Counted from the stretch's first letter, positions 3,157-57,300 are shown. The stretch is 64,000 bases of DNA from Candidatus Doudnabacteria bacterium (GCA_963768175.1 CAVYGQ010000001.1:638305-702304); one strand, 5' to 3'. Translations and numbers: made by a program. Notes: a model not told the origin generated them from the letters alone.

Positions 3157-5571
3157 AAAAATCTTATTATAGTAGAAAGTCCCACAAAATCTAGAACTAT
3201 CCAAAAATTTTTAGGGCCCGACTATCAAGTCGAGGCTAGTTTTGGTCATGTTAGAGATTTGCCTAAAAGCAAAATATCTATTGATGTAAAAAATAACTTT
3301 GAGCCTGTCTATATTATCCCTCCCAAAGCAAAGGAAATAGTAGCTAAACTTAAAATTCTGGCCAAAGACGCTCCCTCTATTATATTGGCGACTGATGAAG
3401 ACCGCGAAGGAGAGGCTATTTCCTGGCATTTGGTGCAGGCTTTGGGTTTGGGCGATGAAGCGCAAATCGCACACGGCCGGGAAGATAAGCGCATAAAAAG
3501 GATAGTTTTCCACGAAATCACCAAAAGCGCGATAGACGAGGCCATGAAAAATCCCCGCGACATAGACCTAAATCTGGTTGACGCCCAACAGGCGCGGCGC
3601 GTTTTGGACCGGCTGGTCGGCTACGAACTCTCGCCGTTTTTGTGGCGCAAAATCCGCTATGGCCTTAGTGCCGGGCGCGTGCAATCGGTCGCGGTCAGGC
3701 TGGTGGTGGAACGCGAAAGGGAAATCCAAAAATTTAAAACCGAAGAATACTGGAGCATAGAAGCCAAGCTATCAAAAAACTCCCCCGCCTCCGGCACCCC
3801 CTCTTTAATTAAAGAGGGGGACGGGGGGAGTTCAAAAACCTTCATCGCTAAATTAAACGCGATAGACGGCAAAAGCGTCGGCAAAATGGATATAAAGGCG
3901 GAAGCCGGCGCCAAAAAAATTGTCGCCGATTTAAACGGCGCCGAATATAAAGTTGCCGATATTGCCACCAAAGAAACCAGGCGCACGCCCGCTCCCCCGT
4001 TTACCACTTCCACGCTCCAGCAGGAAGCCGCGCGGAAATTTGGCATGTCCGCCAAACAAACAATGGTCATTGCCCAACAGCTTTATGAAGGTCTGGACAT
4101 TGGCGAGCAGGGCTTGACCGGTTTAATTACCTATATGCGAACCGACAGCTTGAACTTGGCGCAGTCGGCGCTTTCGGCCATTGCCGATGTCATAAAAAAC
4201 GAATTTGGCAAAGAATATGCTTTGGCTCAGCCGCGATTTTACGCCAACAAGAGCAAAGGCGCACAGGAAGCGCACGAGGCCATCCGCCCGAGCGACATTA
4301 CCCGCAAGCCCGCCGACATCAAGCAATTTTTAGACAGAGGCCAGTATAAAATTTACGATCTAATTTGGAAGCGCACCGTTGCCTGCCAAATGCAACAGGC
4401 GATTTTGGAACAGACATCGGTGGATATATCGGCTACCCACTACCCACTACCCACTACCCACTACCTTTTTCGTGCCAATGGCCAAACCATAAAATTTGAC
4501 GGCTTCATCCGCGCCTATACCGAAGGCCGGGACGAAAAGGCCGAAGATGAAATAGAAGGCGTGTTGCCGGAACTTTTACTTGACGAAAAGCTTAAGCTCC
4601 ACGAACTTCTGCCTCTGCAGCATTTTACGGAAGCCGCTCCCCGCTACACGGACGCAACGCTAATTAAAGCCCTGGAAGCCGCCGGCGTCGGACGCCCTTC
4701 CACTTACGCGCCGACGCTTTCCACCATCCAAGACCGTGGCTACGTCCATAAACTTGATAAAAAATATAGCCCCACGGAAGAAGGCTTTTTGGTCAACGAC
4801 ATGCTGGTGGAAAATTTCCCCGAGATTGTGGATATTAATTTTACCTCCCACATTGAAGAAGAATTTGACGACATAGCCGAAGGCAAAATCAAATGGGTAG
4901 AAGTCATGCGTGAATTTTACGGCCCATTCAAAAAACACCTGACGGAAAAAGAGGCCAGCGTGGAAAAACAAGTGGAAGTTTCCGCCACGCCGTGCCCGCA
5001 CTGCGGCAAAATGATGATTATAAAATACGGGCGCATGGGCAAATTTTTGGCCTGCCCCGACCCCGAAAGCAAAGTCACCATGCCCATGCCGGAAGAAGCG
5101 GCCAAAATTAAAGAGCTGGAAGAAAAAACCAAGGGCGAAGTTTGCCCGATTTGCGGCAAACCGATGAATGTGCGGCGCGGGCGGTTTGGCTTCTTTTTGG
5201 GCTGCAGTGATTATCCCAAATGCAAAGGCATCAGCAAAATTTGGAATAAGACCGGTTATAAATGCCCGGCGTGTCTTGCGAAGCAAGAGGGTGAGCGAAG
5301 TCGAACCCCTAACGATGAAACCCGTCCCTCAACTCCTTCGGCTGAAGCCGAAGTTCGCTCGGGACAATCAGCAAAGCTGATTGGCGACATTGTGGAAAAA
5401 AAAGCCCGCGGCCGCGGCAAGCCATTTTTTGCCTGCACCCGCTTCCCCGATTGCACGTTCGTGATGAATGTTAAACCCGAGTCGCAACAACAACTTGACG
5501 GAGCCTACGCTAACTGGAAGACTAATCCGCCAAAACCAAAAAAAGTTTACAAGAAAAAAACCTCGGAATAA
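3151..5571 (+). CDS. topA: DNA topoisomerase I with multiple C-terminal zinc-ribbon domains
   Basis: 806 aa. TOPRIM domain (LIIVESPTKSRTIQKFLG, ATDEDREGEAISWH), catalytic region (YMRTDS), and CxxC...CxxC ribbons (CPHCGK, CPICGK, CPAC...FACTRFPDC). Confidence 0.9.
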   Translation: MSKNLIIVESPTKSRTIQKFLGPDYQVEASFGHVRDLPKSKISIDVKNNFEPVYIIPPKAKEIVAKLKILAKDAPSIILATDEDREGEAISWHLVQALGLGDEAQIAHGREDKRIKRIVFHEITKSAIDEAMKNPRDIDLNLVDAQQARRVLDRLVGYELSPFLWRKIRYGLSAGRVQSVAVRLVVEREREIQKFKTEEYWSIEAKLSKNSPASGTPSLIKEGDGGSSKTFIAKLNAIDGKSVGKMDIKAEAGAKKIVADLNGAEYKVADIATKETRRTPAPPFTTSTLQQEAARKFGMSAKQTMVIAQQLYEGLDIGEQGLTGLITYMRTDSLNLAQSALSAIADVIKNEFGKEYALAQPRFYANKSKGAQEAHEAIRPSDITRKPADIKQFLDRGQYKIYDLIWKRTVACQMQQAILEQTSVDISATHYPLPTTHYLFRANGQTIKFDGFIRAYTEGRDEKAEDEIEGVLPELLLDEKLKLHELLPLQHFTEAAPRYTDATLIKALEAAGVGRPSTYAPTLSTIQDRGYVHKLDKKYSPTEEGFLVNDMLVENFPEIVDINFTSHIEEEFDDIAEGKIKWVEVMREFYGPFKKHLTEKEASVEKQVEVSATPCPHCGKMMIIKYGRMGKFLACPDPESKVTMPMPEEAAKIKELEEKTKGEVCPICGKPMNVRRGRFGFFLGCSDYPKCKGISKIWNKTGYKCPACLAKQEGERSRTPNDETRPSTPSAEAEVRSGQSAKLIGDIVEKKARGRGKPFFACTRFPDCTFVMNVKPESQQQLDGAYANWKTNPPKPKKVYKKKTSE
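4434..4465. repeat. Tandem 7-bp repeat (tacccac, about 4 copies) inside the topA coding sequence
   Basis: acccactacccactacccactacc encodes THYPLPTTHY. The unit length is not a multiple of 3. Confidence 0.5.
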
Positions 5572-8024: not shown

Positions 8025-9280
8025 CTATTCGTATCTCATCGCTTCTACCGGATCCAGCATGGAAGCCGAGCGGGCTGGAAGCACGCCAAAGGAAATGCCG
8101 ATGGCCGCCGATACTCCCACAGCGAGTAAAATGGCATACATCGGCACGGAAAATGTCCAAGCGAGCCCGGAGGAAACGGCGATTAAAGAAATTACCCAAC
8201 CCAAAAGCGCGCCAAACACAATGCCGATAACTCCTCCAATGACGGTAACCAAAATTGATTCAATTAAAAACTCGTTTAAGATGTCGGAGTTTTTGCGCCT
8301 AAAGCTTTTTTCAGCCCGATTTCCGCGGTGCGTTCGGTCACCACCACATACATAATATTCATAATGCCCACGCCGCCGACGATTAAAGAAATAGCGGCAA
8401 TGGCAATCAGTAAAATGGTAATACCGTTAAAAATTACATTAAAGGTAGCCAGTGCCTGGGCCTGAGACTCTACTATGAAGTCGTCTTTGACCGGATCGGT
8501 AATGTTATGGTTATACTCCATCAAATTTTTTATCTGGCTGACGGTTACATCGGACAAATTGATATTTTGCACCTGGACAACGCCGATGACCAAGTAGTCT
8601 ATACCGAGAAGTTTTTTTTGCGCGGTGCCCAAGGGAATGTATAAACTGTCATCGGCCGTGCCACCGCCGGCAAAACCCAAAGAATTGTAAACTCCTATGA
8701 CCTGAAAATTTAAAGTGCCCACGTGGATGAATTGGCCCACCGGATCGGTTTGGTTAAACAAATCCTGGGCCAAGCTTGTGCCTAAAATCGCCACCTGGGC
8801 CGCGCCGTCGTCTTCGGCCTTGGTGTAAAAACGGCCTTCCTTTAAAGTGTGCTCGTCAATCTGGAATTTGCTGGCAGAAGCGCCGTAGTACAGTGCATTT
8901 TTGTCTACATTGCCGTAGCTTACAACCGCCTGGCCAATGACCTCGCCGTATACGCCTACGACATTATTTAGTTTTGCGATATCATCCAAATCCCGTTGCT
9001 TAAAACTGGTAATCTTTATGCCGGAAAAAGCCGCGGTATTCGGGCCAGCAACAGAACTGGCCGCGCGGTTTTTGGTGGTCGGCGGCACGCGCGTCTCGAT
9101 AAATAAAGTGTTGCTGCCTAAAGCATTGACTTGCGCATTTATCAAACTTCTAAAACCCGCGCCGGCGGACAGCACTAAAATAACCGTGGAAATGCCGATC
9201 ATAATTCCTAAAGTCGTCAACACAGTCCGTACCAAGTTGGCGGACAGGGCTTTAATGGATTGTCGTAATGCTATCATCAT
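8025..9280 (-). pseudogene. MacB/FtsX-family ABC transporter permease split by a single-base frameshift
   Basis: ORFs 8276..9304 (N-terminal part) and 8025..8252 (C-terminal part ...LDPVEAMRYE) together match the intact paralog 9357..10628. The frame shifts at a T5/A5 homopolymer near 8287-8291, and adding one base restores ...GAKNSDILNEFLIESILVTVIGGVIGI. The likely true start is MIALRQ near 9280, because the upstream MFVCLNVYM is encoded by an intergenic repeat. Confidence 0.7.
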
Positions 9281-9293
9281 ATAAACATTTAAA

Positions 9294-9355
9294 CATACAA
9301 ACATTTAAACATCATAGACTTTACTTATATGTTTAAATGCTTAAATGCTTGTATG
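9294..9355. repeat. AT-rich palindromic repeat at a gene junction inside an operon (catttaaacat / atgtttaaatg family)
   Basis: catttaaacatacaaacatttaaacat...atgtttaaatgcttaaatgcttgtatg lies exactly between the two FtsX genes. Confidence 0.6.
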
Positions 9356-9356
9356 A

Positions 9357-10628
9357 TTATTCGTATCTCAGCGCTTCTATCGGATCTAAATTACTTGCCT
9401 TAAAAGCCGGGTATAGCCCAAATACCACGCCGGTTAATATGGAAACGCCGACAGCCAGAACTACCGAGGTTATGGAAACCACAAACGCCCAATCGTAGCC
9501 TAAAGAGTGCATTAACAATGAAATAAGATAGGAAACAACCACGCCGATAATAATCCCCACCACTCCGCCAAGGCTGGTTAAGGTTCCGGCTTCCAGTAAA
9601 AATTGGTTGCGGATGGCCCCGTTTGTCGCCCCCACGGCTTTGCGCAAACCAATTTCCCTGGTGCGCTCGCCGACCGTGGCCATCATAATATTTAAAATGC
9701 CAATCCCGCCGACAATTAAGGCGACTGCGGCCATGGCGGTTAAAAACAGCGTTAAGGCGTTGGTAATAGTGCTCAGAATGCTCACGGCGTCGGCAATGTT
9801 GCGCACGGTGAAATCAATATCCGCATCGGATTTTATATGGTGCGCTTCGGTTAAAACCGCAGTGACATCATTTACGGTCTGATTAACATTATCGGCAGAG
9901 TCAACTTTTATATTTATGGCCTGCAAATAATTTATCCCTAAAATTTGCTGCTGGCCAATGACCAACGGTAAAAATATTGCATCATCCTGGTCCTGGAAAA
10001 ATGAGCTGCCGCGCGGGGTGATTACGCCGATAACGCGCAAGGGTATGCCGCCGGGCTGGGTTTGGGAAGAGCTGCGGACTTTAACTACCTGGCCGATTGG
10101 GTCAACGCCGCTGCCCCCAAATAGCTCATTGGCCACGGTTGAGCCCAAAACCACAACGTTGGCGTTGCCCTGGTCCTGCTGCTGGCTAAAAAACTGGCCT
10201 TCCTGCATGGTAAAACTTATGACACTGGGATAGTTATAGTCGGTGCCCGTAAAGTTGGTATCCACGCTCTGGCTTTCCCAGGTTACGGTAACGCTGCCGC
10301 GCACCATGGTGTTGACGGCAGCGGCATGCGGCACCCTGGTGGAATCGCGCAAGGCTGCGGCGTCGTTGGCGGTCAGGGTTGTAACCACGATGCCAAACAG
10401 CTGGGCGGGCGGGCCTTTGTCGTTGCTCTTGCCCGGCTGCACGCTAAGTAAGTTAGATCCAAGTTTGGTAATCTGCCCTAAAACCAAAGACTGGGCGCCG
10501 GCACCCAGCGCTATTATGATTATGACTCCGGCCACACCGATAACAATTCCCAAGATAGTCAAAAACGACCGGCCTTTGCGGGCCTGCAGCGTGCGGAAGA
10601 TGAGTTTGAAGGTGGAAAGGAAATTCAT
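9357..10628 (-). CDS. MacB/FtsX-family ABC transporter permease
   Basis: 423 aa. N-terminal TM helix, large extracytoplasmic domain, C-terminal FtsX domain with three TM helices, ending ...LDPIEALRYE. Confidence 0.8.
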   Translation of the reverse strand: MNFLSTFKLIFRTLQARKGRSFLTILGIVIGVAGVIIIIALGAGAQSLVLGQITKLGSNLLSVQPGKSNDKGPPAQLFGIVVTTLTANDAAALRDSTRVPHAAAVNTMVRGSVTVTWESQSVDTNFTGTDYNYPSVISFTMQEGQFFSQQQDQGNANVVVLGSTVANELFGGSGVDPIGQVVKVRSSSQTQPGGIPLRVIGVITPRGSSFFQDQDDAIFLPLVIGQQQILGINYLQAINIKVDSADNVNQTVNDVTAVLTEAHHIKSDADIDFTVRNIADAVSILSTITNALTLFLTAMAAVALIVGGIGILNIMMATVGERTREIGLRKAVGATNGAIRNQFLLEAGTLTSLGGVVGIIIGVVVSYLISLLMHSLGYDWAFVVSITSVVLAVGVSILTGVVFGLYPAFKASNLDPIEALRYE

Positions 10629-10630
10629 AA

Positions 10631-10718
10631 ATCATTTTAACATTTTATCATATTATCATTTTAACAAAACAGCGGTATTACATGTTAAAATGATAAAATG
10701 TTAGTATGATAAAATGAC
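10631..10718. repeat. AT-rich palindromic repeat at a gene junction (cattttaacat variant with compensatory arms)
   Basis: atcattttaacattttatcatattatcattttaac...gttaaaatgataaaatgttagtatgataaaatg lies between the FtsX permease and the ABC ATPase. Confidence 0.6.
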
Positions 10719-11510: not shown

Positions 11511-13088
11511 TTATTGCTTAATATACGTCACCACTGTCTGGCCTTCGCTTAGGCCGGAGGTAATTTCTACCAATCCGCCGTCGGCGGAAAGGCCAGTCTG
11601 CACCTGAACCTGATGGTAAGTTCCCTTTTTTATATCATCGACGACCCTTACATATTGGTTGTTGTTTTGGTTTATAACGGCGCTGCTCGGCACGGCCAAA
11701 ACATTTGATTTTTTGGCGACCAAAATAGTCATATTCGCCGTCATGCCCGGCTTGATATCCGGGATGTTAGGCAAAGCGGCTTTAACAAGGTAGTTAACCA
11801 CGCCGGAGATAACCGTGGAAGCGGGGTTGATAGTCAAAACGCTGCCCGAAAAATGGCGGTCCGGGCCAAGCGCGTCAAAAGTATAATCAACCGATTGCCC
11901 GGGTTGGAGCGAGGCGATATCCGCTTCGGCTACGTCGGCTTCGGCGTGCAAATCGGCCACGTCCTGAAGAATCATAACTTCCTGAAGCGCCACAGCCTGC
12001 TCCCCAATTTTTATATCAACCTGGGTAATCGTGCCGTCTAACGGGGCTTTAAGCACCGTATTGTTTAAATTTACCTGGGCGGAATCCACCTGGCCTTGCG
12101 CGGAAAGAATCTGGGCCTTGGCCACGTCAATATCCGCGGAACTGGCCTGGGCAAGTTCGTTATCTAAAGTAGCCTGCGCCTGGGCCAGCGCGCTTTGCGC
12201 GCTTTGCACCTGGCCTTGCGCGGCCGAAACGGCGCTGGCCTGGGCCTGCAAAGCGGTCTGGTAAGCGTTATAATTGGCAACATAAGCGGGGGCATAAGTA
12301 TTGGGAATACTAACCGTCCAGGTATCGCCCACCGCAGGCGTGGTGTTAAATTGGATATAAAGCCCGAATGTCCCCATTTGGGTGGGCAGATTGCGCACAT
12401 TGCCGGAAACGGTTTCCAGACCAGAAACCTGGAACTGTAAACCGCTGCCGGTGGAGTATAAGCTTATATTATAGATGCCGACATTGGATCCGATATAGGT
12501 ACCGGTAATTATTGGGGTTACCGTGTCGCTATTGCCCGAAGACGCGACGGCGGTAATGGAAGTATTTAAAAGGGTATTATAGGCATTTTTTACCGCCGTC
12601 GCCTGCTGGGCCTGCGTGGTGGCCAGGCTTGTGGTCGCATTACCCAATGCCACTTGGGCGGTATAAACCGCTTGCTGGGTTACCGCAATTTGGGTGTCGG
12701 TGCTGCCCTGCAAGACCTTTTCATAATTTGCCTGCGCCTGCGCCAAACCTCCTTCGGCGGTAGTTAAAGCGGCCGCCGCCGAAGATTGATTTAAGGTAGC
12801 CAAAGTCTGCCCGGCTTTAACCATGTCCCCTTCTTTTACCAAAACTTGAGTTACCACGCCGCTTGACTGGAAACCCAGATTCAAATCGGTACTGCTGACA
12901 ACCTGTCCGGTGCTGAGCACGGTTTGCTGTAAATCCTGTTTTGTCGCGACGGCGGTTTGAATATTACCGGCAGTATTTTTACTTGCGTGGATGCGATAGC
13001 CAATAAACCCAACGACAAGCAAAATAATCACCGTCCAGATAATTTTCTTTTTTGTAAAAAATCCGCGAATTTTTACCCCGTTAGACAT
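11511..13088 (-). CDS. HlyD/MacA-family membrane-fusion (periplasmic adaptor) protein
   Basis: 525 aa. N-terminal TM helix (IIWTVIILLVVGFIGY), long Ala/Gln-rich coiled coil, C-terminal beta-barrel region. First gene of a four-gene exporter operon. The N-terminus MSNGVK is encoded by the TCTAACGGGG repeat. Confidence 0.7.
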   Translation of the reverse strand: MSNGVKIRGFFTKKKIIWTVIILLVVGFIGYRIHASKNTAGNIQTAVATKQDLQQTVLSTGQVVSSTDLNLGFQSSGVVTQVLVKEGDMVKAGQTLATLNQSSAAAALTTAEGGLAQAQANYEKVLQGSTDTQIAVTQQAVYTAQVALGNATTSLATTQAQQATAVKNAYNTLLNTSITAVASSGNSDTVTPIITGTYIGSNVGIYNISLYSTGSGLQFQVSGLETVSGNVRNLPTQMGTFGLYIQFNTTPAVGDTWTVSIPNTYAPAYVANYNAYQTALQAQASAVSAAQGQVQSAQSALAQAQATLDNELAQASSADIDVAKAQILSAQGQVDSAQVNLNNTVLKAPLDGTITQVDIKIGEQAVALQEVMILQDVADLHAEADVAEADIASLQPGQSVDYTFDALGPDRHFSGSVLTINPASTVISGVVNYLVKAALPNIPDIKPGMTANMTILVAKKSNVLAVPSSAVINQNNNQYVRVVDDIKKGTYHQVQVQTGLSADGGLVEITSGLSEGQTVVTYIKQ

Positions 13089-13175
13089 AATTTTGTACTC
13101 CTAAATTGTTAACTTATTAATTTTAATTGAATTTCCCGTCGGCATTAAATAATCAATAATGTCTAACGGGGTGAA
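13074..13175. promoter_or_regulatory. Inverted repeat of the TCTAACGGGG element spanning the HlyD start codon and its 5' leader
   Basis: taccccgttagacat (13074-13088, includes the start codon) and atgtctaacggggtgaa (13159-13175) are complementary. The AGGAG-like Shine-Dalgarno sequence lies in the roughly 70-nt loop. Confidence 0.55.
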
Positions 13176-13198
13176 TAGTAAATAATTTAGATTAATAA

Positions 13199-13534
13199 TT
13201 ACTTATTTTTAAATTGGGAAAACATTTTCCCCATATTTTTTTCAACATATTCCCTAACTTCTTTATTCGCGCCGCTGCCGGAAAAATTTTGCATAATTAT
13301 TTTGACAAAGCTCTCCATTTGGTCGGTCTTTATAAACCCAAGGACCTTGCCGAACTTGCCCATAACCATAAGCTGGTCGCCGGGACTGAGGCCAAGGTCT
13401 TTGCGGGCGTCGGCCGGGATAACCACCTGCCCCCTGGCCCCCATGGTCGTAGTTCCATAGAGCCTGTCCTGGCTGGTCATTTTTTTGTGGATTTTTAAAT
13501 GTAGATTGCTTTTCACCCCGTTAGAAGTAGCCAT
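13199..13534 (-). CDS. AbrB/MazE/SpoVT-family swapped-hairpin DNA-binding protein with an N-terminal extension
   Basis: MGARGQVVIPADARKDLGLSPGDQLMVM is the AbrB-type domain. The roughly 30-aa N-terminal extension MATSNGVK... is encoded by a TCTAACGGGG element. Confidence 0.65.
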   Translation of the reverse strand: MATSNGVKSNLHLKIHKKMTSQDRLYGTTTMGARGQVVIPADARKDLGLSPGDQLMVMGKFGKVLGFIKTDQMESFVKIIMQNFSGSGANKEVREYVEKNMGKMFSQFKNK

Positions 13535-13598
13535 TTTAAATGTCCTTTTAAAATTTTACCGACCCCTAGTTAGAAATACTGCTTCTAACGGGGTTCAT
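13512..13598. promoter_or_regulatory. Three copies of the CCCCGTTAGAA / TTCTAACGGGG motif around the AbrB-like start that can form alternative hairpins
   Basis: Start-region copy at 13512-13534, and upstream copies cccctagttagaa (13563-13575) and cttctaacgggg (13582-13593). A tiny upstream ORF (ATGAACCCCGTTAGAAGCAGTATTTCTAACTAG) overlaps the upstream hairpin. Confidence 0.45.
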
Positions 13599-13696
13599 AA
13601 AATTCCTTCCGGATTAAGGCTGATAAAAAAAGTATGATATTTCATACTTATCATATCATGGCTAAAAACTGTTGTCAATAGCCCGCTGGACCTAAT

Positions 13697-15815: not shown

Positions 15816-15900
15816 TTTCTATTAAAACTTAGATAATTCATTCTAACACAAATTCTTACATCTTCAAAGTGGATAAAGTAAAAAACTTAAAAGCCCTTGA

Positions 15901-15964
15901 CCCCGCTAGAAGTCCGATGTCTGGCAAATCGGCAATGGCCTTTGGCTATTGACTTCTAACGGGG
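15901..15964. repeat. TCTAACGGGG-family inverted repeat in the 5' region of the pilin gene
   Basis: ccccgctagaagtc...(36 nt)...gacttctaacgggg. Confidence 0.5.
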
Positions 15965-16095
15965 TTGATAAAATCGGCAAAATGTTGTAAAATATCGTAG
16001 ATACTATCAAAACTATTAACGATTTACTATTAACAATTAACTAATCCGTGTTTGGGTTAATTGTCAATTGTTAATAGTTAATTGTAATTCTACCC

Positions 16096-16200
16096 GGGTC
16101 TGTAGCTCAGTTGGCCCCATCATTCGATGGGGCAGGTATCGCAGCGGCCTTTTAAGTTTACCCTATCGAATGATAGGGCCGTTTGATAAGGGTAATCCTT
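16096..16200 (+). other. Degenerate tRNA-Lys-like sequence with two hairpin insertions
   Basis: It starts gggtctgtagctcagttgg like the next copy and contains gcagcggccttttaag and gccgtttg. It is interrupted by ccccatcattcgatgggg and ccctatcgaatgataggg, which are mutually complementary. Confidence 0.3.
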
Positions 16201-16208
16201 AAGCCGGT

Positions 16209-16469
16209 ATGTTCTATATTTATATACTCCTACAAAATAACAACCTGCCATATACTGGTTTTACTGATAATTTAAAACGCAGATATAAACAACACACGGA
16301 CGGACTAGTAACATCAACAAAGCATAAAAGGCCATTAAAACTAATTCATTACGAAGCATATTTATTAAAAACAGATGCCGTGAGAAGAGAAAAATTTTTA
16401 AAAACCACCGAAGGAAAAAGGTTGTTAAAACAGCAAATTAGAGATATATTAATTAAGCTCAAAGTGTAA
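16209..16469 (+). CDS. GIY-YIG nuclease domain protein (homing-endonuclease-like)
   Basis: IYILLQNNNLPYTGFTDNLKRRYKQH is the GIY-YIG motif. 86 aa. Lies between tRNA-like sequences. Confidence 0.65.
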   Translation: MFYIYILLQNNNLPYTGFTDNLKRRYKQHTDGLVTSTKHKRPLKLIHYEAYLLKTDAVRREKFLKTTEGKRLLKQQIRDILIKLKV

Positions 16470-16481
16470 TTTAATCTTCGT

Positions 16482-16555
16482 GGGTCTGTAGCTCAGTTGG
16501 TAGAGCAGCGGCCTTTTAAGCCGTTTGTCGCGGGTTCGATCCCTACTCGCTACAT
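16482..16555 (+). pseudogene. Degenerate tRNA-Lys(UUU)-like copy: 5' two-thirds intact, T-stem and acceptor 3' strand do not pair
   Basis: GGGTCTG-TA-GCTC-AGTTGGTA-GAGC-A-GCGGC-CTTTTAA-GCCGT-TTGTC-GCGGG-TTCGATC, then CCTAC/TCGCTAC, which do not complement. Confidence 0.4.
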
Positions 16556-16584
16556 CTCGCCTTAAAAAAACTTAATAAATTTGA

Positions 16585-16660
16585 GGGACGGTAGCTCAGC
16601 TGGTAGAGCAGCGGCCTTTTAAGCCGTTTGTCCCGGGTTCGATCCCCGGCCGTCCCACCA
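16585..16660 (+). tRNA. tRNA-Lys (anticodon UUU), 76 nt with encoded CCA
   Basis: GGGACGG-TA-GCTC-AGCTGGTA-GAGC-A-GCGGC-CTTTTAA-GCCGT-TTGTC-CCGGG-TTCGATC-CCCGG-CCGTCCC-A-CCA. All stems pair. Confidence 0.85.
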
Positions 16661-16683
16661 AGTAAATTTTTCGGGAGTTACAC

Positions 16684-16722
16684 CCCGCTAGTCTGTTAAG
16701 ACTAGCGGGGTTTTCGTATGCC
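16684..16722 (+). terminator. Hairpin terminator after tRNA-Lys, a variant of the CCCCGYTAG palindrome family
   Basis: caccccgctagtctgttaagactagcgggg followed by ttttcg. Confidence 0.55.
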
Positions 16723-21255: not shown

Positions 21256-21843
21256 ATGTAAAACTTTCCTTAATAGCGGTTTTTTGGTAAAATAAAGGTA
21301 CAATCTGCGCCTAAACCTTGAGAATATCCGGGCATGGCAAAGCTACTCCGGTAGCAAACCAATACAGGTAAAGAAACCCTCGTCAGGGTTCCTGTATTGG
21401 TCGTGCGGGGAAACTCGCGCGTTCGGCCCGAAAGGGTCGAGCTCCTGGCGGGGGCTTTTTTGTATCCAAAATTAATTATTAGAAGCTATGCCCAAATATA
21501 AAATCGACATCTGGTTTGATCAAAAACCCAAAAAAATACACTTAGGGTCTGTTGCTGTTGAGGCGAAAAATGAAGAAGAGGCCTATAAAATTGCATGCCT
21601 AAAAACTGAGCACTGGATGGTAGGGAAAGTAGAAAAAGATCAATAAAAATGGGCGAAAACTCGTTCCTTGACAAACCAATAAAACTTTGATATAATGTAA
21701 GGTCTCAAAAATAACGAGACTTGCGCTTTACAATCCTTCACTAATCAAAGGATAATAAAGTGCTTGTCTTGTTTTGAAAAAGATGAGACCGTGTCCTTGC
21801 GGCCCAAGGATGTCTTACAGAACCTACACAATTCGAAAGGAGG

Positions 21844-22788: not shown

Positions 22789-23808
22789 TTATTTTTTCGG
22801 CATTTCACTTTGCAACCAAAACTCATTCTTTAAACTTTCTCCAAAATCATGGGCATTGCAATGAGATAGCACCCCTAAATACGATTGTAGAGATTGCTCA
22901 TTAATCCCTTTAGCTGATTTATTAAAAATTCTTTGCTTAGTTTTGTTCCTCAAAATCCTGAATTTGGGAAACTGAATATAGCCAAGAAAATCAACTCCCT
23001 GATGGTATTTTCGTAACGTTAGTTTATGAGGGTGGATATCAAGCTTGAGCCGCTCCCGTAAAAACAGCTTTATCCATTCTAACAAGGACAAAAGTTTTTC
23101 AGGCGAATCTGAAACCAGAACAAAATCATCGGTATAGCGAACATAAAAAGGGACTTTCAGTTTGTGTTTAACAAATCTGTCCAGTTCATTCAAATAAATA
23201 TTGGCAAAGACCTGGCTAGTCAGATTGCCTATGGGTACGCCATAAGGAAAACTGTCCACGACTTCACGGATTAGCCACATGGCATCGACATCTTTAATTT
23301 TTTGGCCAATAATAGAAATCAAAATATCATGATCAACCGAACGAAAAAACTGTCTAACATCACACTTAAGCACAAAGCAGGGCTTAGTATTATTTTTGCT
23401 GGCTTTACGCAATATGCTTTTAAGCGCTTCCACGCCCTTGTGCGTGCCTTTGCCCTTTTGACAGGAAAAAGAATTGGGAATAAAGGTCTCTTCAAAAATG
23501 GGATTCAAAACAGCAAAAATGGCATGATGGATAAGCCGGTCGCGCACTCTGGCTTTGTGGATGTTCCTTTGTTTGGGATCCTGGATAAAAAAGGAAGAAT
23601 AAGGCGCATGCTTGTATCTTTTTGACTTTAATTCGTCACGCAAATCAAAAATGTTCTGCTCCAATGAAAACTCAAAAGCCATTACATCGCTGCGTTTGGT
23701 CTTTCCCTTGCGAAATGCCTGCCAGGAGTTAAACAGATTTTCCGCACTGGTTATTTTGCTAAAAATATCTTTATAGATTTTCATATATGAACGAATTCGA
23801 TGTTCCAA
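22789..23808 (-). CDS. DGR-type reverse transcriptase
   Basis: RT motifs appear in order, including PIGNLTSQVFANIYLNELD and YVRYTDDFVLV (YxDD). The SQ in motif 4 is the DGR hallmark. 339 aa. An alternative start MKIYKD at 23784 would remove the overlap with the Avd-like gene. Confidence 0.85.
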   Translation of the reverse strand: MEHRIRSYMKIYKDIFSKITSAENLFNSWQAFRKGKTKRSDVMAFEFSLEQNIFDLRDELKSKRYKHAPYSSFFIQDPKQRNIHKARVRDRLIHHAIFAVLNPIFEETFIPNSFSCQKGKGTHKGVEALKSILRKASKNNTKPCFVLKCDVRQFFRSVDHDILISIIGQKIKDVDAMWLIREVVDSFPYGVPIGNLTSQVFANIYLNELDRFVKHKLKVPFYVRYTDDFVLVSDSPEKLLSLLEWIKLFLRERLKLDIHPHKLTLRKYHQGVDFLGYIQFPKFRILRNKTKQRIFNKSAKGINEQSLQSYLGVLSHCNAHDFGESLKNEFWLQSEMPKK

Positions 23809-32357: not shown

Positions 32358-33455
32358 ATGGATCCAATTCAGACACATCATTATTTCAGACAAATCAGCC
32401 AGGAATTTCTGGTGTATTGCCAGTTTGGAAAAGAAACGCCGGTCGCTAAAACAACCCTGATAGGCTACGGGCGCGGGATGAAGTTGATGAATAAAATATT
32501 TGGCGACAAGCCGATAGAAGAACTGGATAGCAACGATGTACTACTTTTGAGAAAATCCATTTTGGAACGCGGCTGTACTTTAAGCTATCTGCATAGAATC
32601 CTGAGCATGCTTCGCTCCGTCCTCCGCTATTGCCGCGAAGAAAGGGATATGGAAATATTGCCACCGGAAAAAATCAAACTGCCTAAAATAAAATGGCGGG
32701 ACGTGGAGTTCTACAGCGTCAGCCAGGTGGAAAAAATTATTTCCGAGATTCAGACCATGACGATCCACGGCATCCGTCTGATGGCGGTAGTGGCCGGTTT
32801 CCTGGACAGCGGCATGCGCATCTCGGAGCTTCTTTCCCTGGACCGCGCCAGCATAGATTACGGGGACGGCAGCGCTTACATAATTGGCAAAGGCGGCAAA
32901 CAAAGGAAAGTCTTTTTCAGATCATGGTCAATGGACTGGATGCAAAAATATCTGGCACAGCGAACTGACAATAATCCAGCGATGTTCGTGGTTCACCACG
33001 CAGGCTACGAGTTAGTCAGATTAAGGCCGGAAGACGTCCGGAAAATGCTGCGGAGGATATCCAAAACCGTGGGCTTTGGGATAAGACCGCATGCCTTAAG
33101 AAGAACTTTTGCCACCCTCCTGCACGGCAATGGCGTGGACATAAGGTTTCTACAAGCCCTGCTTGGCCATTCTTCGGTACAGGTAACGGAGCGTTACGTA
33201 GGCGTCGACCAAGTCATGCTTAAGGCAATGGTTAACACCAGAATGAACTACGGCCTGGCTGAAGCGGTCACATCCAACCTGGCAGCTATCCGCTGGGCCA
33301 AGGGATATGATCAGTGCATAGAGTGTGGACAAACCAGGCGGCCCCACCTTGCCAGAGGCTATTGCGACAGCTGCTACATGAACGCTAGGAACCATCAGGA
33401 GCTCAATAAACACGGGGTTTTGACGCTACAGGGAGTTGCGTTACAGCCAGCCTAA
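32358..33455 (+). CDS. Tyrosine integrase with a C-terminal zinc-ribbon extension
   Basis: HALRRTFATLLHGNGVDIRFLQALLGHSSVQVTERYVGV (R, H-x-x-R, Y). C-terminal CIECG...CDSCY. Confidence 0.85.
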   Translation: MDPIQTHHYFRQISQEFLVYCQFGKETPVAKTTLIGYGRGMKLMNKIFGDKPIEELDSNDVLLLRKSILERGCTLSYLHRILSMLRSVLRYCREERDMEILPPEKIKLPKIKWRDVEFYSVSQVEKIISEIQTMTIHGIRLMAVVAGFLDSGMRISELLSLDRASIDYGDGSAYIIGKGGKQRKVFFRSWSMDWMQKYLAQRTDNNPAMFVVHHAGYELVRLRPEDVRKMLRRISKTVGFGIRPHALRRTFATLLHGNGVDIRFLQALLGHSSVQVTERYVGVDQVMLKAMVNTRMNYGLAEAVTSNLAAIRWAKGYDQCIECGQTRRPHLARGYCDSCYMNARNHQELNKHGVLTLQGVALQPA

Positions 33456-38170: not shown

Positions 38171-38250
38171 ATCATTTAAACATACAAACATTTAAACATA
38201 TAAGCAATTCCAGCATGTTTAAATGCTTAGATGCTTCCATGTTTAAATGA
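38171..38250. repeat. AT-rich palindromic repeat at a gene junction (catttaaacat family)
   Basis: atcatttaaacatacaaacatttaaacat...atgtttaaatgcttagatgcttccatgtttaaatga. Lies between the DUF3467-like gene and dnaJ. Confidence 0.6.
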
Positions 38251-42481: not shown

Positions 42482-43051
42482 TTATTCGCCACCTTTGGTG
42501 GCTTTCTTACTGATAATCACTTGGCTTGGCCTAATAACTTTCCCGTTCAGTTCAAACCCTGTTTGCAATTCATCGATAATAATTCCGTCATCTTTTTCCG
42601 TTTCAACCTCGCGCACGGCTTCGTGAAAATGCGGGTCGAATTTTTTTCCGATGGATTCGATTTTTTTGACGCCTAAATCTTCCAAAGTTTTATCCAGTTG
42701 CTTCAACAAAACATTGATGCCGTCTTGCCAGTTTTGGTATTGCTTGGCAAATTCTCGATAGGGAAGAGGTGTCCCCTCTTCCAGAGGGGACACCTCTTCC
42801 AAAACCGGCATATGCCTTAGCGCCAGCTCCAGGCTGTCTATTGTCGGTAAAAGTTTAATCACCGTGACTTCGCGCGCGAACTCCACCAATTCCTTATTCT
42901 CCCCTTCCTTGCGGCGCTTGTAATTTTCAAAATCCGCGGCCGTGCGCTTCCATCCCGCCATGGCGCTTTCAAAATCGGTTTGGAGCTTTTCCAGCGTTAT
43001 TTCGCCGTTCTGGTTTTGGTCGTCTTGTTGTTGTTCGTCAGACATAATCAT
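42482..43051 (-). CDS. grpE: Nucleotide exchange factor GrpE
   Basis: 189 aa. Coiled-coil N-terminal part and C-terminal GrpE domain (KLLPTIDSLELAL...FDPHFHEAV). Confidence 0.85.
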   Translation of the reverse strand: MIMSDEQQQDDQNQNGEITLEKLQTDFESAMAGWKRTAADFENYKRRKEGENKELVEFAREVTVIKLLPTIDSLELALRHMPVLEEVSPLEEGTPLPYREFAKQYQNWQDGINVLLKQLDKTLEDLGVKKIESIGKKFDPHFHEAVREVETEKDDGIIIDELQTGFELNGKVIRPSQVIISKKATKGGE

Positions 43052-43123
43052 TTAAACATTTAAGCATCTAAGCATGTAAACATACTCGGATTGTTTAAAT
43101 GTTTGTATGTTTAAATGCTTAAA
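43047..43123. repeat. AT-rich palindromic repeat at a gene junction (catttaaacat family)
   Basis: atcatttaaacatttaagcatctaagcatgtaaacat...tttaaatgtttgtatgtttaaatgcttaaat. Lies between hrcA and grpE. Confidence 0.6.
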
Positions 43124-43879
43124 TTATCTGATGATATAAACTAGCATTACCGCCGCTCCCCCGCCCAACAGTTTGGCTATATATTCCATCAACGTTAAAT
43201 TCTTTTCGTACTTCATGCTCTTGGGGCCGACAAGTCCGATAACGCCTTTTTTGCCGCTGGGCAATTGCAGACCGCTTACGATCATCGAATAATCTGATTT
43301 TTTGGAAAGCGGGATTTCTTTGCCGATAAACGTTTGCGGCCCGCCCTTGCCGCCGTAATCGCTCATTATTTGTTCCGCGTGCTCGTCTATATTGTCAAAA
43401 AACTGGGCAATTTCTTTGGCGTCCTCGGCCGGCAGGGCGGGATTATTTAATATGTGGGAAAGCCCGACAGTGGAAACTTCTTCCGGAAATATCGCAAAGC
43501 TGGCTTGATTTGAGTATTCTGATAATAACTTGGCCAAACGCCTGCTCATTTCCACGTGCGCCATTTGCAGTTTCAGCAGTTCCCTTTTCAAAAAATCCTG
43601 CTCCTTTACCGAAAGTTTGACGCGGTCCATAAGCTGGTTGACAAAATACCGAAAGCCCTTGTCGGTTGGCACGCGGCCGGCCGAAGTGTGCGGCTGGGAA
43701 ATATAGCCCATTTTTTCCAGCGCCTGCATTTCGTTGCGGATGGTCGGGCTGCTTACGTTAAAATTGTACTTTTCCGCCAAATCCCCGCTGGCCACGGGCT
43801 GGCCGTTTTCGCAATTCTCTTTGACAATCGCGGCCAGTATTTTGGCTTGTCTTGGGGTTATTTCCGATGTTTGGTCCAT
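43124..43879 (-). CDS. hrcA: Heat-inducible transcription repressor HrcA (short form)
   Basis: N-terminal wHTH (RQAKILAAIVKENCENGQPVASGDLAEKYNFNVSSPTIRNEMQALEKMGYISQPHTSAGRVPT). Sits upstream of grpE-dnaK-dnaJ. Confidence 0.8.
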   Translation of the reverse strand: MDQTSEITPRQAKILAAIVKENCENGQPVASGDLAEKYNFNVSSPTIRNEMQALEKMGYISQPHTSAGRVPTDKGFRYFVNQLMDRVKLSVKEQDFLKRELLKLQMAHVEMSRRLAKLLSEYSNQASFAIFPEEVSTVGLSHILNNPALPAEDAKEIAQFFDNIDEHAEQIMSDYGGKGGPQTFIGKEIPLSKKSDYSMIVSGLQLPSGKKGVIGLVGPKSMKYEKNLTLMEYIAKLLGGGAAVMLVYIIR

Positions 43880-46043: not shown

Positions 46044-46148
46044 ATGGCCCCGTTAGACATTTAACTTAAAATTACATTTTTATAGAATTAACCACGGTCA
46101 AAATTATGAAAAATCTAAAAACAAAAAATATGTCTAACGGGGTGAAAA
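46044..46148. promoter_or_regulatory. TCTAACGGGG inverted repeat bracketing the peptidase-2 start region
   Basis: atggccccgttagacat (46044-46060) and atgtctaacggggtgaaaat (46129-46148). Confidence 0.5.
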
Positions 46149-47335: not shown

Positions 47336-48001
47336 ATGAAAAATCGAGATTATAAAATCTTTGCCCCTAACACATTCCATCACGTTTACAATCGTGGCAA
47401 TGGTAAAATGGATATTTTTAAAGATGAGCAGGATTTTTTTAATTTTTACAAACGCCTAAATTTAGTTCTTGGAACCCAACAAGAACAAGGGGCATCCTTT
47501 TGTTGCAAAAGGATGCCCCTTGTTGGGAATTCATTGCACATTCATCCGCTGCCAAAAAAAGCCTTTAGCATACTTTGCCATTGTTTAATGCCAAACCACT
47601 TCCACTTCCTAATCCGGCAAAACTCTGACACCCCGATCAGTAGCCTGATTTCAAAATTGTGCACAAGTTATAGCATGTATTTTAACAAAAAATACGACCA
47701 TGTTGGTGGGTTATTTCAAGACCAATTTAAGTCTATTCTTATAGATAACGATCAATACCTCTTGTGGCTGTCGGCCTATATTCATCAAAACCCCGCTGTA
47801 GCCGGTTTAGTTAAGGATATAAAAGATTACCCTTACAGCAGTTATCCGGACTACCTAGGTTTACGCGTAGGAAATATTACGGACACTTTTTTAATTTTAA
47901 GCATGGCGAGCAACGACCGCAAAAACTATGAGCAATTTGTATTAGGAAATTATGAAAAAATTAAACAGCGCAAGGATTTAAGCCATCTTTTTCTTGATTA
48001 G
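47336..48001 (+). CDS. IS200/IS605-type Y1 (HUH) transposase, REP-associated (RAYT-like), with an in-frame REP-hairpin insertion
   Basis: HUH motif CLMPNHFHFLI and Tyr region YIHQNP. A roughly 54-bp perfect hairpin at 47475-47528 is translated as GTQQEQGASFCCKRMPLVGNS. Confidence 0.6.
   Translation: MKNRDYKIFAPNTFHHVYNRGNGKMDIFKDEQDFFNFYKRLNLVLGTQQEQGASFCCKRMPLVGNSLHIHPLPKKAFSILCHCLMPNHFHFLIRQNSDTPISSLISKLCTSYSMYFNKKYDHVGGLFQDQFKSILIDNDQYLLWLSAYIHQNPAVAGLVKDIKDYPYSSYPDYLGLRVGNITDTFLILSMASNDRKNYEQFVLGNYEKIKQRKDLSHLFLD
47475..47528. repeat. REP-like hairpin (ggggcatccttttgttgcaaaaggatgcccc core) inside the transposase ORF
   Basis: cccaacaagaacaaggggcatccttttgttgcaaaaggatgccccttgttggg has a stem of about 20 bp. 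Confidence 0.7.
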
Positions 48002-48006
48002 CTTAA

Positions 48007-57212: not shown

Positions 57213-57224
57213 AAATTTGTTTAC

Positions 57225-57300
57225 CCTGTTAAATTTTACCCCGTTAAATTATCCGCCCCTAGCGGAGACTATTTAACTGGGGATTTAACAGGGTGAATTA
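57225..57300. promoter_or_regulatory. Nested palindromes in the pilin 5' region (CCCCGTTAAAT-type arms)
   Basis: caccctgttaaattttaccccgttaaattatccgcccctagcggagactatttaactggggatttaacagggtgaa. Confidence 0.45.

Follow-up and report, generated by a model that had tools for sequence, protein, structure and literature searches.

The inverted repeats that recur in the 64-kb stretch of DNA analysed here (the window) are very probably the terminal inverted repeats of small, non-autonomous, MITE-like mobile hairpins. Their insertion into start codons gives the peptide SNGV at the N-termini of unrelated proteins, and the most likely relative of these hairpins is an element made of a GIY-YIG nuclease gene and hairpin repeats. 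Two readings had been proposed in the preliminary description of this DNA: a mobile palindrome from which genes obtain their start codons, or an RNA switch shared by export-related genes. Empty and filled syntenic sites, 4-bp duplications and orthologs lacking SNGV all bear out the first of these proposals.

We found the motif CCCCGYTAG 11 times in the window against 1.0 expected, a count equalled by 0/100 shuffles. The copies were nearly always arranged as facing pairs, so that the recurrence in pairs initially reported is real. Allowing up to one mismatch, TCTAACGGGG occurred 11 times (3.5 expected), and the paired pattern CCCCGTTAGA-N50-80-TCTAACGGGG was found 3 times (0 expected). The window contains four canonical element copies together with variants, which are listed here along with a promoter-like site.

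13076..13171, 96 bp: element copy 1, between the AbrB-like and HlyD-family genes
13516..13593, 78 bp: element copy 2, within the AbrB/MazE-like start codon
13650..13678, minus strand: promoter-like site, TTGACA-17-TATGAT (11/12), upstream of the AbrB-like gene
15901..15964, 64 bp: element copy 3, intergenic, upstream of the pilin promoter-like site
16682..16711, plus strand: terminator-like mini-hairpin, directly 3' of tRNA-Lys
46048..46142, 95 bp: element copy 4, at the S8 peptidase gene start
57224..57293: nested variant copies, 11 nt 5' of the ATG (57212) of a minus-strand gene

A lone 10-mer at 12037-12046, within the HlyD ORF, codes for A-P-L-D-G and has no partner.

The perfect inverted repeat of the elements had a median length of 13 bp, with the core CCCCGTTAGA/TCTAACGGGG. 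Element size ranged from 28 to 150 bp (median 91 bp) and loop length from 7 to about 120 nt, and the paired arms surveyed were always <200 bp apart. The interiors of the four window copies resembled each other no more than shuffled sequences did (z -1.9 to 1.1), and they had only the arms in common. This is unusual for one MITE family; some families elsewhere, unlike the window copies, do have common interiors.

Exact 4-bp direct repeats flanked 74/144 copies, with a mean mismatch of 1.18 as compared to 2.13 +/- 0.07 for shuffled flanks. In an independent metagenome set the duplications were exact in 91/159 copies (mean mismatch 0.85 versus 2.24 +/- 0.08). The consensus of the duplicated target was TNNA, with a preference for (G)TNNA(C), and within one family both flanks co-varied (TAAA..TAAA versus TGAA..TGAA). 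The duplications of copies 2 and 3 in the window were exact, while those of copies 1 and 4 were degenerate. We also observed both empty and filled sites among orthologs, with borders at exactly CCCC/GGGG, for the AbrB-like, HlyD and peptidase genes and upstream of the pilin. The elements therefore show what is expected of MITEs: terminal inverted repeats, target duplications, empty and filled sites, small size without a transposase gene, and several copies. The 'identical copies' of DX4.bin27 were not taken as independent evidence, as they are nested within a larger 330-bp MITE flanked by TTAA.

The same arms were present in a dozen phyla, mostly uncultivated, the hosts being chiefly Patescibacteria, Planctomycetota, Thermodesulfobacteriota and Omnitrophota. 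Viral contigs gave a single match to the element, and a literature search with the 10-mers returned primers only. Neighbouring gene ends were 5' ends in 108 cases and 3' ends in 106, with many copies lying at gene 3' ends or between convergent genes. The placement relative to genes was thus random, which the preliminary description had regarded as the mark of an inert MITE, except for an excess in ATGAA start codons. The two other marks named there, orthologs without the shared N-terminus and pairing that is not conserved, were both observed without such a reservation. In other genomes, the genes with an element at their start included MurC, ProS, NusA, ScpA and flavodoxin.

Copy 2 lies between two exact 4-bp target copies, at 13512-13515 and 13594-13597, which read TTCA on the plus strand and TGAA on the gene strand. 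A relic ATG at 13598-13596 (minus strand), preceded by the SD GGAAGGA, opens a 10-codon ORF (13598->13566, minus strand) reading MNPVRSSISN and then a stop. Translation may now begin at ATG 13534 or at the junction GTG (13516-13514). Excision of copy 2 together with one TGAA gives back ggaaggaattttATGAAAAGCAATCTACAT, in agreement with the empty sites of loci L121, L123 and L124. The pair at 13516-13593 and the 10-codon upstream ORF were as first described; of the additional copies claimed there, the internal right arm at about 13563-13577 proved degenerate (CCCCTAGTTAGAA). The surroundings of the promoter-like site at 13650-13678 were conserved in the aligned orthologs L121 and L123 (the L124 alignment ends before there). 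As this site (13678-13650) lies upstream of the AbrB-like gene, copies 1 and 2 are predicted to lie inside an AbrB-HlyD-ABC-FtsX transcript.

Copy 1 has the arms CCCCGTTAGACAT (13076-13088) and ATGTCTAACGGGG (13159-13171). On the minus strand, its gene-facing arm contains the annotated HlyD ATG (13088) and the codons S-N-G-V, and its loop carries AGGAG at 13098-13102 (plus-strand coordinates), 8 nt upstream of that ATG. The start codon and SD thus fall within the stem and loop of the pair at 13076-13171, as had been noted. The flanks (TTCA/TAAA, gene strand) have no intact duplication. The syntenic HlyD sites of L121 and L123 lack the element, and the HlyD proteins there begin MNI..., while the site is filled in L124 with the same flanks as in the window. 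The HlyD ortholog of L129 (60% identical) carries an independent insertion in its start codon, and the TGAA duplication there is perfect. Between the window and L124 the arms were identical at 26/26 positions and the interior was 71% identical; such identical arms around a diverged interior hint at some constraint on the arms, which counts against a reading of pure mobility. The patchy distribution of the filled state in the HlyD tree also counts against the mobile hairpins as an explanation.

At copy 4, a relic ATG (46044-46046) opens a 6-codon ORF at 46044-46064 reading MAPLDI and then a stop. The in-frame candidate starts are ATG 46106, ATG 46130 (in the right arm) and the junction GTG at 46142-46144, followed by KIKIFVLAAAML... 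The flanks ATGG/TGAA form a degenerate duplication. Both the pair, at 46048-46142, and the 6-codon upstream ORF claimed for this gene were found. The peptidase site was filled in L126, L127 and L131 (ATATGAA/CCCC..GGGG/TGAA), the copy being positioned at ATGA(A/G), and was empty in L125 and L128. At the syntenic empty locus of L128, the stop codon of an upstream ORF6N gene overlaps the peptidase start at the site of the element. Most peptidase orthologs were 392-394 aa long and began with MK... (e.g. P0155, MKIKIFII...).

Copy 3 has an exact TTGA duplication (plus strand, 15897-15900 and 15965-15968), and its left arm is the variant CCCCGCTAGAAGT (the CCCCGCTAGA variant). The element was absent from the homologous ATCAAGG site upstream of the pilin in L121. 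The pair at 15901-15964 stood as reported for the pilin 5' region; it lies upstream of the promoter-like site at 15867-15840, however, and hence outside the pilin leader. The palindrome said to double as a tRNA terminator was also present. It is a CCCCGCTAG hairpin with a T-run, ACCCCGCTAGTC-TGTTAA-GACTAGCGGGGT and then TTTTCG, at 16682-16711 after tRNA-Lys (16585-16660). Its flanks (TACA/TTTT) show no duplication. This mini-hairpin is possibly a minimal family member, though its membership is uncertain; forms of 28-41 bp occur elsewhere. At 57224-57293 an outer pair, CCCTGTTAAAT...ATTTAACAGGG, encloses an inner pair, CCCCAGTTAAAT...AATTTAACGGGG (57239-57282), with the flanks TTCA/TAAA, the same as those of the HlyD copy.

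Three unrelated proteins had been described as sharing an MSNGVK N-terminus, and insertion at or in start codons explains this. Since the target TGAA is part of ATGAA, the most frequent gene start, a fraction of insertions fall in start codons. Insertion into A/TGAA juxtaposes ...TCTAACGGG-G and TGAA, creating an in-frame GTG and a reading of S-N-G-V-K. The left TGAA copy retains the old SD and ATG, which then open a short ORF (MNPVR...) running into the left arm, while the right copy, together with the terminal G of the element, supplies the in-frame GTG AAx. The arm, having no stop in that frame, is read as S-N-G-V, and since it is open in this way any internal ATG (in the GACAT/ATGTC arm variant or in the loop) yields M..SNGVK. 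The 10-codon and 6-codon upstream ORFs are relics of the original start codons running into the left arm.

At 42/318 arms the SNGV frame ran without a stop for 100 codons or more; the corresponding numbers for the two remaining frames were 16 and 0. A junction GTG was seen in 25/49 gene-facing arms versus 38/222 in the comparison set, and an in-frame internal ATG in 20/49 versus 33/222 (p=1e-4). In 15 cases (e.g. MurC, ProS, NusA and flavodoxin), excising the element with one copy of the duplication gave back an SD-ATG-ORF arrangement. In L044, L065 and L083 the entire element is read in frame from the old ATG (MNPVR...ISNGV...). Orthologs without the insertion had no MSNGVK N-terminus and started with MK... 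or MN... Proteins beginning M..SNGV.. or MNPVR.. in Patescibacteria and several other phyla thus have a transposon-derived N-terminus or a mis-called start, and taking out the element and one 4-bp repeat recovers the native start. The element also illustrates how a transposon can be tolerated inside the start codons of essential genes (murC, proS, nusA).

We further looked for the enzyme that may move these elements. The 64-kb window contained no arm-flanked GIY-YIG gene; its one GIY-YIG ORF (16209-16469) is unflanked, belongs to another clade and lies in a tRNA context. Elsewhere, one protein alone recurred between these arms: a single-domain GIY-YIG nuclease, 84-94 aa long, whose units measure 277-340 bp. 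We surveyed 1.5 Mb of metagenome contigs selected for clustered arms, and of the 25 GIY-YIG-like loci there 12 had arms on either side at a distance of no more than about 120 nt. These 12 represent seven distinct flanking contexts (L142, L175, L188, L192, L197, L200 and L205). The duplications were exact in 4/7 contexts, one of them in an ATGAA start (L205), and in L197 the gene lies between two complete mini-hairpins of the family, of 30 and 34 nt. All the arm-flanked proteins matched PF01541 (51-62 bits) and formed one clade, apart from the unflanked GIY-YIG genes. The nearest solved relative was UPF0213 BH0048 (1ZG2), with a 38-bit match. A tblastn search of plasmids with the arm-associated GIY-YIG gave no match.

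Since the GIY-YIG nuclease is the only protein repeatedly seen between the arms, the window copies most likely belong to a GIY-YIG/hairpin element akin to Ssn/SRM, either as derivatives without the ORF or as its cognate repeats. GIY-YIG nucleases are hydrolytic, which counts against one as the mover, and no enzyme of known strand-transfer chemistry was found. The arrangement suggests that the nuclease may be linked to mobility. A bolder proposal, which we offer tentatively and consider rather doubtful, is that the arms and the GIY-YIG gene (277-340 bp) form an autonomous transposable element of a mechanistic class undescribed in bacteria. A nuclease of ~90 aa, Ssn-like, would act on its own terminal hairpin and generate 4-bp duplications, and the window copies would be its ORF-less derivatives. 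Its ends (...GGGG, with two open outward frames) would be adapted so that insertion in A/TGAA, or between SD and ATG, regenerates a GTG start or an SD-like GGGG. Were this the case, such start-regenerating ends would allow the element to colonise the tiny intergenic space of reduced genomes in a dozen phyla.

The alternative that survives best, though we think it unlikely, is a classical MITE of a DDE transposon (e.g. IS1380/piggyBac-like), with the GIY-YIG genes as passengers or secondary invaders and with the transposase missed since multicopy IS break metagenome assemblies. The ends of the present elements start with CCCC, and the 4-bp duplications of the form T..A (TTTA, TAAA, TCAA, TATG) resemble those of piggyBac, which has CCC ends and a TTAA target with the same variants, and whose prokaryotic relatives are IS1380 (PMC10813416). 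The ISEcp1 ends CCTAGATTCTACGT have CC..TAGA in common with the arms, a likeness confined to CC..TAGA. The MAGs that carry the element also contain a 330-bp MITE whose ends are CCCGAAAAATGC and whose flanks are TTAA. The arms bracket other cargo too, e.g. a 130-aa membrane ORF in L149 with the duplication CTCA, and IS fragments do occur on very short contigs, so that assemblies may lose multicopy IS. Against this, we found no arm pair >520 bp without inner arms in the 1.5 Mb, and when the ORFs of 200 aa or more in 120 loci were clustered all against all, no transposase recurred. The arm-flanked GIY-YIG ORFs, moreover, take up the whole unit, overlap with its two arms and group in one clade. 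A tblastn search of the 1.5 Mb with the ISEcp1 transposase gave nothing real, the sole match being a spurious antisense one in L090.

Two other candidates were examined and set aside. The single transposase fragment seen between arms is the N-terminus of an IS30-like transposase (HTH_38, NF033563) in a 519-bp copy in L180; in L214/L215, where the element is complete, it ends in sequences of its own and lacks CCCC arms, which makes it a nested IS. The long arm pairs in L007 and L001 are not autonomous copies, as ordinary genes lie between the arms.

We also evaluated the second proposal of the preliminary description, i.e. a conserved cis-regulatory RNA (riboswitch, thermometer or protein-binding leader) that occludes the starts of export-related genes. 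As an origin of the repeats this is largely refuted, and we regard it as very improbable. Folding of the four leaders did give stable hairpins (-27 to -34 kcal/mol, z-scores -2.6 to -4.2) that take in the start codon or first codons. The AbrB leader permits two alternative pairings, both operon copies (1 and 2) would be transcribed from the 13678-13650 promoter, and the arms of the window and L124 copies are fully conserved around a diverged loop. However, the interiors are unrelated, the loop varies from 7 to about 120 nt, and the pairing was not conserved: arm changes were uncompensated in L126, L129 and L131, and the left arm of L130 has decayed. The element is also missing from close orthologs, its host genes have no functional relation, and a leader motif would not account for the target duplications. 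Many copies lie at gene 3' ends or between convergent genes, with overall counts of 108 and 106 for 5' and 3' gene ends. A search of Rfam gave no family at gathering thresholds, and at permissive thresholds only a sub-threshold plant miRNA hairpin. The hairpins form because both ends of the element are transcribed; as RNA they probably lower or modulate initiation as a side effect.

Still less probable are REP/REPIN repeats moved by a Y1 HUH transposase (RAYT) or invertons flipped by a recombinase: a Y1_Tnp (IS200-like) ORF does lie at 47336-48001, 1.2 kb from copy 4, yet the palindrome on its two sides is another one (AAGGGGCATCCTTTTG), just 1/120 element loci has a homolog nearby, and HUH transposition leaves no duplication whereas both flanks co-vary here; and, although a tyrosine recombinase at 32358-33455 and conserved inverted repeats around variable content including the SD fit an inverton family, inversion accounts for neither duplications nor empty sites and is physically implausible with spacers of 7-40 bp.

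When compared with known systems, the mobile hairpins resemble MITEs such as Nezha and Correia/NEMIS (Delihas 2011, PMC3184786) in their terminal inverted repeats, duplications, lack of a transposase, long RNA stem-loops, empty and filled sites in relatives and host reading-frame fusions. They differ in that copies within a genome have only the 13-bp ends in common, in that the 10-bp core spans a dozen phyla, and in that no DDE parent was found. With piggyBac/IS1380 they share CC(C) ends and a 4-bp T..A duplication; the target here is not confined to TTAA, however, and no matching transposase was found in the 1.5 Mb, so that we treat this resemblance as a lead only. Mycobacterial MIRUs (PMC3184786), of 40-100 bp, likewise have tetranucleotide direct repeats and an intra-operon location, and their ends overlap the stop codon or the start codon of adjacent genes; the peptidase copy at ATGA(A/G) in L126/L127/L131 occupies the site of such a stop-start overlap in the empty locus L128. 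In Neisseria REP2 (PMC3184786), ORFs downstream are fused to a promoter, an RBS and an ATG that the repeat carries. The sequences of both differ from the present ones, and MIRU is a tandem-repeat locus, whereas the junction of the present element regenerates a start (G+TG) and gene 3' ends are also occupied. Rickettsia palindromic elements (RPE; PMC3184786) are also palindromic mobile repeats that are tolerated in coding sequence and translated as extra peptide; unlike the present elements, which lie at N-termini and in intergenic DNA, RPEs insert inside genes.

A close architectural parallel is Ssn/SRM (NTS/dRS3 of Neisseria). According to Chenal et al. 2025 (PMC11893778), the arrangement is SRM-ssn-SRM, and NTS-ssnA-NTS is said to look like an insertion sequence. 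As here, a ~90-aa single-domain GIY-YIG gene is bracketed by hairpin-forming inverted repeats, which are also scattered as many ORF-less copies around other genes. The consensus drawn from that text, HGTCWY..YYVSBRH..WNVSBRG..RNCYNB, matched neither the window (0 hits) nor any of the elements. Compared with the repeats as portrayed there, the present elements are mostly long-looped (median 91 bp), with the gene often inside one hairpin rather than between two, and they have target duplications and empty and filled sites, neither of which the sections consulted describe for NTS. The mobility of nuclease and hairpin-repeat units is left open in the same text. What is found here is an Ssn-related architecture accompanied by duplications and empty sites, with one and the same start codon hit repeatedly and independently, which makes the question of Ssn-type mobility directly testable with the L175, L200 and L205 units.

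We observed 11 matches to the repeat motif TCTAACGGGG or its complement (at most one mismatch) in the window, which has a G+C content of 46.8%, against 3.5 expected. The shorter CCCCGYTAG was likewise found 11 times against 1.0 expected, and no shuffle reached 11. The matches face each other in pairs, as the arms of small hairpins, at all window positions except one.

Copies of the repeat in the window
13076-13171: facing arm pair, HlyD-family gene (copy 1)
13516-13593: facing arm pair, MazE/AbrB-like gene (copy 2)
15901-15964: facing arm pair, type IV pilin region (copy 3)
46048-46142: facing arm pair, subtilase (S8 peptidase) gene (copy 4)
16682-16711: short hairpin of facing arms
57224-57293: nested pair of variant arms
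12037-12046: unpaired copy within the HlyD ORF, coding for A-P-L-D-G, no partner

RNA folding of the four regions associated with these HlyD-family, MazE/AbrB-like, type IV pilin and subtilase proteins gave -27 to -34 kcal/mol (z-scores -2.6 to -4.2). The preliminary description was thus correct except for small details. A composite-like layout is also seen at 13076-13593 (518 bp), where the entire AbrB-like gene is enclosed by the left arm of copy 1 and the right one of copy 2.

When we examined relatives (L-numbers denote loci from other genomes or metagenome contigs, P-numbers orthologous proteins), both empty and filled sites were found. HlyD orthologs at 86-90% identity are 521 aa long, starting MNIRGFF or MKISGFF; the window protein has 525 aa and starts MSNGVKIRGFF. 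L121, L122 and L123 are syntenic (pilin, 479-aa gene, MazE-like, HlyD, ABC, FtsX), have 15 and 18 nt between the MazE-like stop and the HlyD ATG, and carry neither the HlyD nor the AbrB element; L124 has the former and lacks the latter. Removal of 13516-13593 and one TGAA from the window gives ggaaggaattttATGAAAAGCAATCTACAT, the empty-site sequence. The pilin element is absent from L121, at ATCAAGG. Peptidase orthologs are mostly 392-394 aa and begin MK (e.g. P0155, MKIKIFII, against GTG-KIKIFVL in the window), and SNGV is present in P0122, P0124 and P0125; the site is empty in L125 and L128 and filled in L126, L127 and L131 (ATATGAA-CCCC...GGGG-TGAA). The filled state is patchy across the HlyD tree. 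In L129, whose HlyD gene is 60% identical, that codon was hit by an insertion of its own, flanked by a perfect TGAA duplication.

An exact 4-base direct repeat was seen outside CCCC...GGGG in 74 of 144 copies, most commonly TTTA, TAAA, TTCA, TTGA or TGAA. Repeats that are not of the T..A form, among them CGAG and CAAG, show that the duplication is 4 bp. Across all 144 copies the mean flank mismatch was 1.18, against 2.13 ± 0.07 with partners shuffled; an independent set from metagenome contigs gave exact repeats in 91/159 and a mismatch of 0.85 against 2.24 ± 0.08. In the first set, G and C are preferred at the next positions outward, so that the target is palindromic (G-TNNA-C). One family present in four different MAGs has co-varying flanks (TAAA/TAAA and TGAA/TGAA), which argues against an IS200-type fixed end.

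Among the matches listed, removing the element restored a canonical SD-ATG-ORF in 15 perfect-duplication cases, including MurC, ProS, NusA, flavodoxin, response regulator and glycosyltransferase genes. The ATG begins one base before the duplication in 13 of these and one base inside it (TATG) in the other 2. Insertion leaves a right junction of TCT AAC GGG GTG AAx with the gene frame kept, its GTG made from the terminal G of the element and the TG of the duplication. Because this junction keeps the gene frame, an S-N-G-V frame of at least 100 open codons is present at 42 of 318 arms (the other two frames reach 16 and 0, and the third contains TAA), and usable starts are enriched: a junction GTG occurs at 25/49 gene-facing arms against 38/222, and an in-frame loop ATG at 20/49 against 33/222 (p=1e-4). 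The original ATG, kept as a relic left of the element, has become the start of a frame that enters the left arm as MNPVR; its ORF stops after 5-32 codons in 10 of the 13 canonical cases and runs through the entire element in three (L044, L065, L083). All start variants are represented in the window. In the AbrB-like gene the relic ATG opens a 10-codon ORF, and the other starts are a new ATG (13534) and the junction GTG; the peptidase gene has a relic ATG with a 6-codon ORF followed by ATG 46106, ATG 46130 and GTG 46142, all in frame; and the HlyD ATG lies within an arm variant, ATGTC, with a loop AGGAG that is kept in L124. The empty sites, the duplications and the orthologous proteins that lack SNGV support one of the two readings in the preliminary description, that of a start-supplying mobile palindrome. 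The feature is real and non-random. It consists of small mobile hairpin elements of one family; three of the copies in the window lie in or at start codons, which fully accounts for the MSNGVK N-termini held in common.

We also evaluated whether start codons are targeted. TGAA/TTCA-type insertions lay in ATGAA starts in 10 of 15 cases; the same test was passed by 6.6% of all TGAA sites (p=4e-9) and by about 32% of those outside long ORFs (p=0.009). Overall, elements adjoin the 5' end of a gene 108 times and the 3' end 106 times. The start-codon excess is therefore largely the expected result of the TNNA target together with the loss of insertions after which no start is usable. There may be a modest additional preference.

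The preliminary description had also offered a shared regulatory RNA switch occluding the starts of export-related genes. Between the window and L124 the HlyD arms are conserved beyond the loop (26/26 positions against 71% of the interior), for which P would be about 1.5e-4 if the arms changed as fast as the interior. Half of the arm positions concerned are coding, and this is the one orthologous pair with such conservation. Against a switch, the four window copies have interiors that resemble one another no better than shuffles do, an Rfam search gave no match, and arm changes in orthologous copies are uncompensated.

Arm changes in orthologous copies
L129: left arm intact; right arm TCTATTGGGG
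L131: left arm CCCCGTTAAATAT; right arm ATATCTAACGGGG
L126: left arm GACAT; right arm ATATC
L130: left arm decayed; right arm kept, one mismatch (TCTAATGGGG)

The feature is not a riboswitch and is not tied to export. Judging by a promoter-like site at 13678-13650, copies 1 and 2 lie within the operon transcript, so that an incidental effect of these mobile elements on translation is likely. Just 3' of this site (TTGACA-17-TATGAT, AbrB/MazE-like gene) lies a palindrome, AAGTATGAAATATCATACTT (13610-13650), fully conserved in L123; the aligned stretch of L121 ends within it. It is likely an operator for AbrB/MazE-like autoregulation.

A one-genome-per-species scan for CCCCGTTAGA-N50-80-TCTAACGGGG gave at least 120 loci. 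About 17 matches are expected by chance in 596 Gb, and the list of phyla is therefore based on copies with duplications or several per genome. Hosts among the matches listed are Patescibacteria (many lineages), Planctomycetota, Thermodesulfobacteriota/'Deltaproteobacteria', Omnitrophota, Nitrospirota, Cloacimonadota, Elusimicrobiota, KSB1, WOR-3 and others. Interiors are wholly different from genome to genome. Among these matches, left-to-right adjacent arm pairs all span <200 bp, with a median element length of 91 bp (range 28-146) and a median perfect inverted repeat of 13 bp. Some loci had unusual arrangements. In a Saccharibacteria MAG (L026:4971-5127) the arms exactly enclose a tRNA-Thr(CGU) gene, lengthening its acceptor stem, followed by a partial duplicate of the tRNA and by a third arm. 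Tandem copies of one family at L009:2942-3105 and L072:7-223 have a spacer of exactly 4 nt (CTCA), with a simple duplication at neither copy. The small element is nested within a ~330-bp MITE with TTAA flanks, ends CCCGAAAAATGC and piggyBac-like features (L007:2046-2369 and 4832-5155, L019, L004, L035), two inverted copies of which enclose a gene for a 686-aa secreted protein.

All-against-all ORF clustering showed no transposase recurring near the elements among the matches listed, and an ISEcp1 transposase search found none of the ISEcp1 type. The window Y1_Tnp gene was rejected as the mover, being surrounded by other palindromes. Scanning metagenomes for arms spaced 470-500 nt from each other yielded 80 loci with 82 matches, 79 of which are merely neighbouring elements around small genes. 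One 519-bp copy (L180) contains an IS30-like N-terminus; the intact IS has its own ends (L214/L215), so this is a nested insertion. That ~1.1-kb IS30-family element (L214:465-1564 and L215; ends AGTTTKAGNCTAGAATCTAACGCAACAG) has its transposase split into HTH_38 and rve ORFs, and its relatives lie almost only on very short contigs, suggesting that multicopy ISs are lost from these assemblies.

The recurrent cargo was instead a unit of 277-340 bp consisting of the arms and one 84-94-aa ORF with a GIY-YIG domain (51-62 bits). It occurs in seven distinct contexts (L142, L175, L188, L192, L197, L200, L205; L154, L182 and L212 show the L142 locus again, which is counted once), four of them with exact duplications (TAAA, TTTA, CCAG and TGAA, the last in an ATGAA start). 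The ORF begins just within one arm and extends into the other, which encodes the C-termini (RLKRFLSLTG); in L197, two complete mini-hairpins enclose the gene. The proteins group in a single clade (tail REKYLKxGxGKRYxKxRLK), with UPF0213 BH0048 as nearest solved relative, separate from unflanked GIY-YIG genes including window ORF 16209-16469. The miniature nuclease is the candidate cognate enzyme of the elements, a link that, like the mechanism, we infer. At L192:211-686 an arm-flanked gene is broken by a further element copy reading PVLSNGV in frame.

Other features were also seen. The unflanked window ORF (86 aa) lies between a partial and a complete-looking tRNA-Lys-like copy (16090-16560). 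The partial 5' half ends GCAGCGGCCTTTTAAG and is broken by a CCCCATC..GATGGGG hairpin; the complete-looking copy is at 16483-16555 (Rfam partial tRNA, 16489-16546). This looks like an anticodon-loop insertion with duplication of the tRNA 5' half, and arms bracket a similar cluster at L146:4343-4861. In the region 47336-48050, the Y1_Tnp (IS200-like) ORF contains an in-frame perfect 41-nt palindrome (47484-47524, AACAAGGGGCATCCTTTTG/CAAAAGGATGCCCCTTGTT) near-identical to a hairpin at 48006-48050 just past its stop codon, a second palindromic family also within coding sequence. A LOOT RNA match (21308-21439; RF03000) scores 50 bits, above its gathering threshold, and is 1.3 kb away from an ORF for a reverse transcriptase (22789-23808, minus strand, RVT_1, 339 aa). 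A further inverted-repeat family, CATTTAAACAT-like with 30-37-nt arms, occupies intergenic spacers, one of which separates the ABC ATPase gene from the FtsX gene in the AbrB-HlyD operon.

CATTTAAACAT-like inverted repeats in the window
9266-9360
10632-10717
38172-38250
43047-43135

Repeats fused to starts have precedents in MIRU, Neisseria REP2 and RPE (PMC3184786). The CC(C) ends and 4-bp T..A duplication recall piggyBac/IS1380 elements (PMC10813416), whose transposase was not found for the present elements in the ISEcp1 transposase search. According to Chenal et al. 2025 (PMC11893778), Ssn proteins are ~94 aa long, consist of a single GIY-YIG domain and cleave single-stranded DNA beside hairpin repeats (NTS/SRM). 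These repeats are scattered in hundreds of copies, and in 42% of homologs they lie on either side of ssn; the authors liken NTS-ssnA-NTS to an IS. The present family has the same architecture of nuclease and hairpin repeats. It differs from the SRM, as described there, in that its repeat does not fit the consensus, its loops are often long, and it has target duplications and empty sites. The candidate GIY-YIG enzyme, together with the regeneration of starts by the element ends, makes this family more than a routine MITE.
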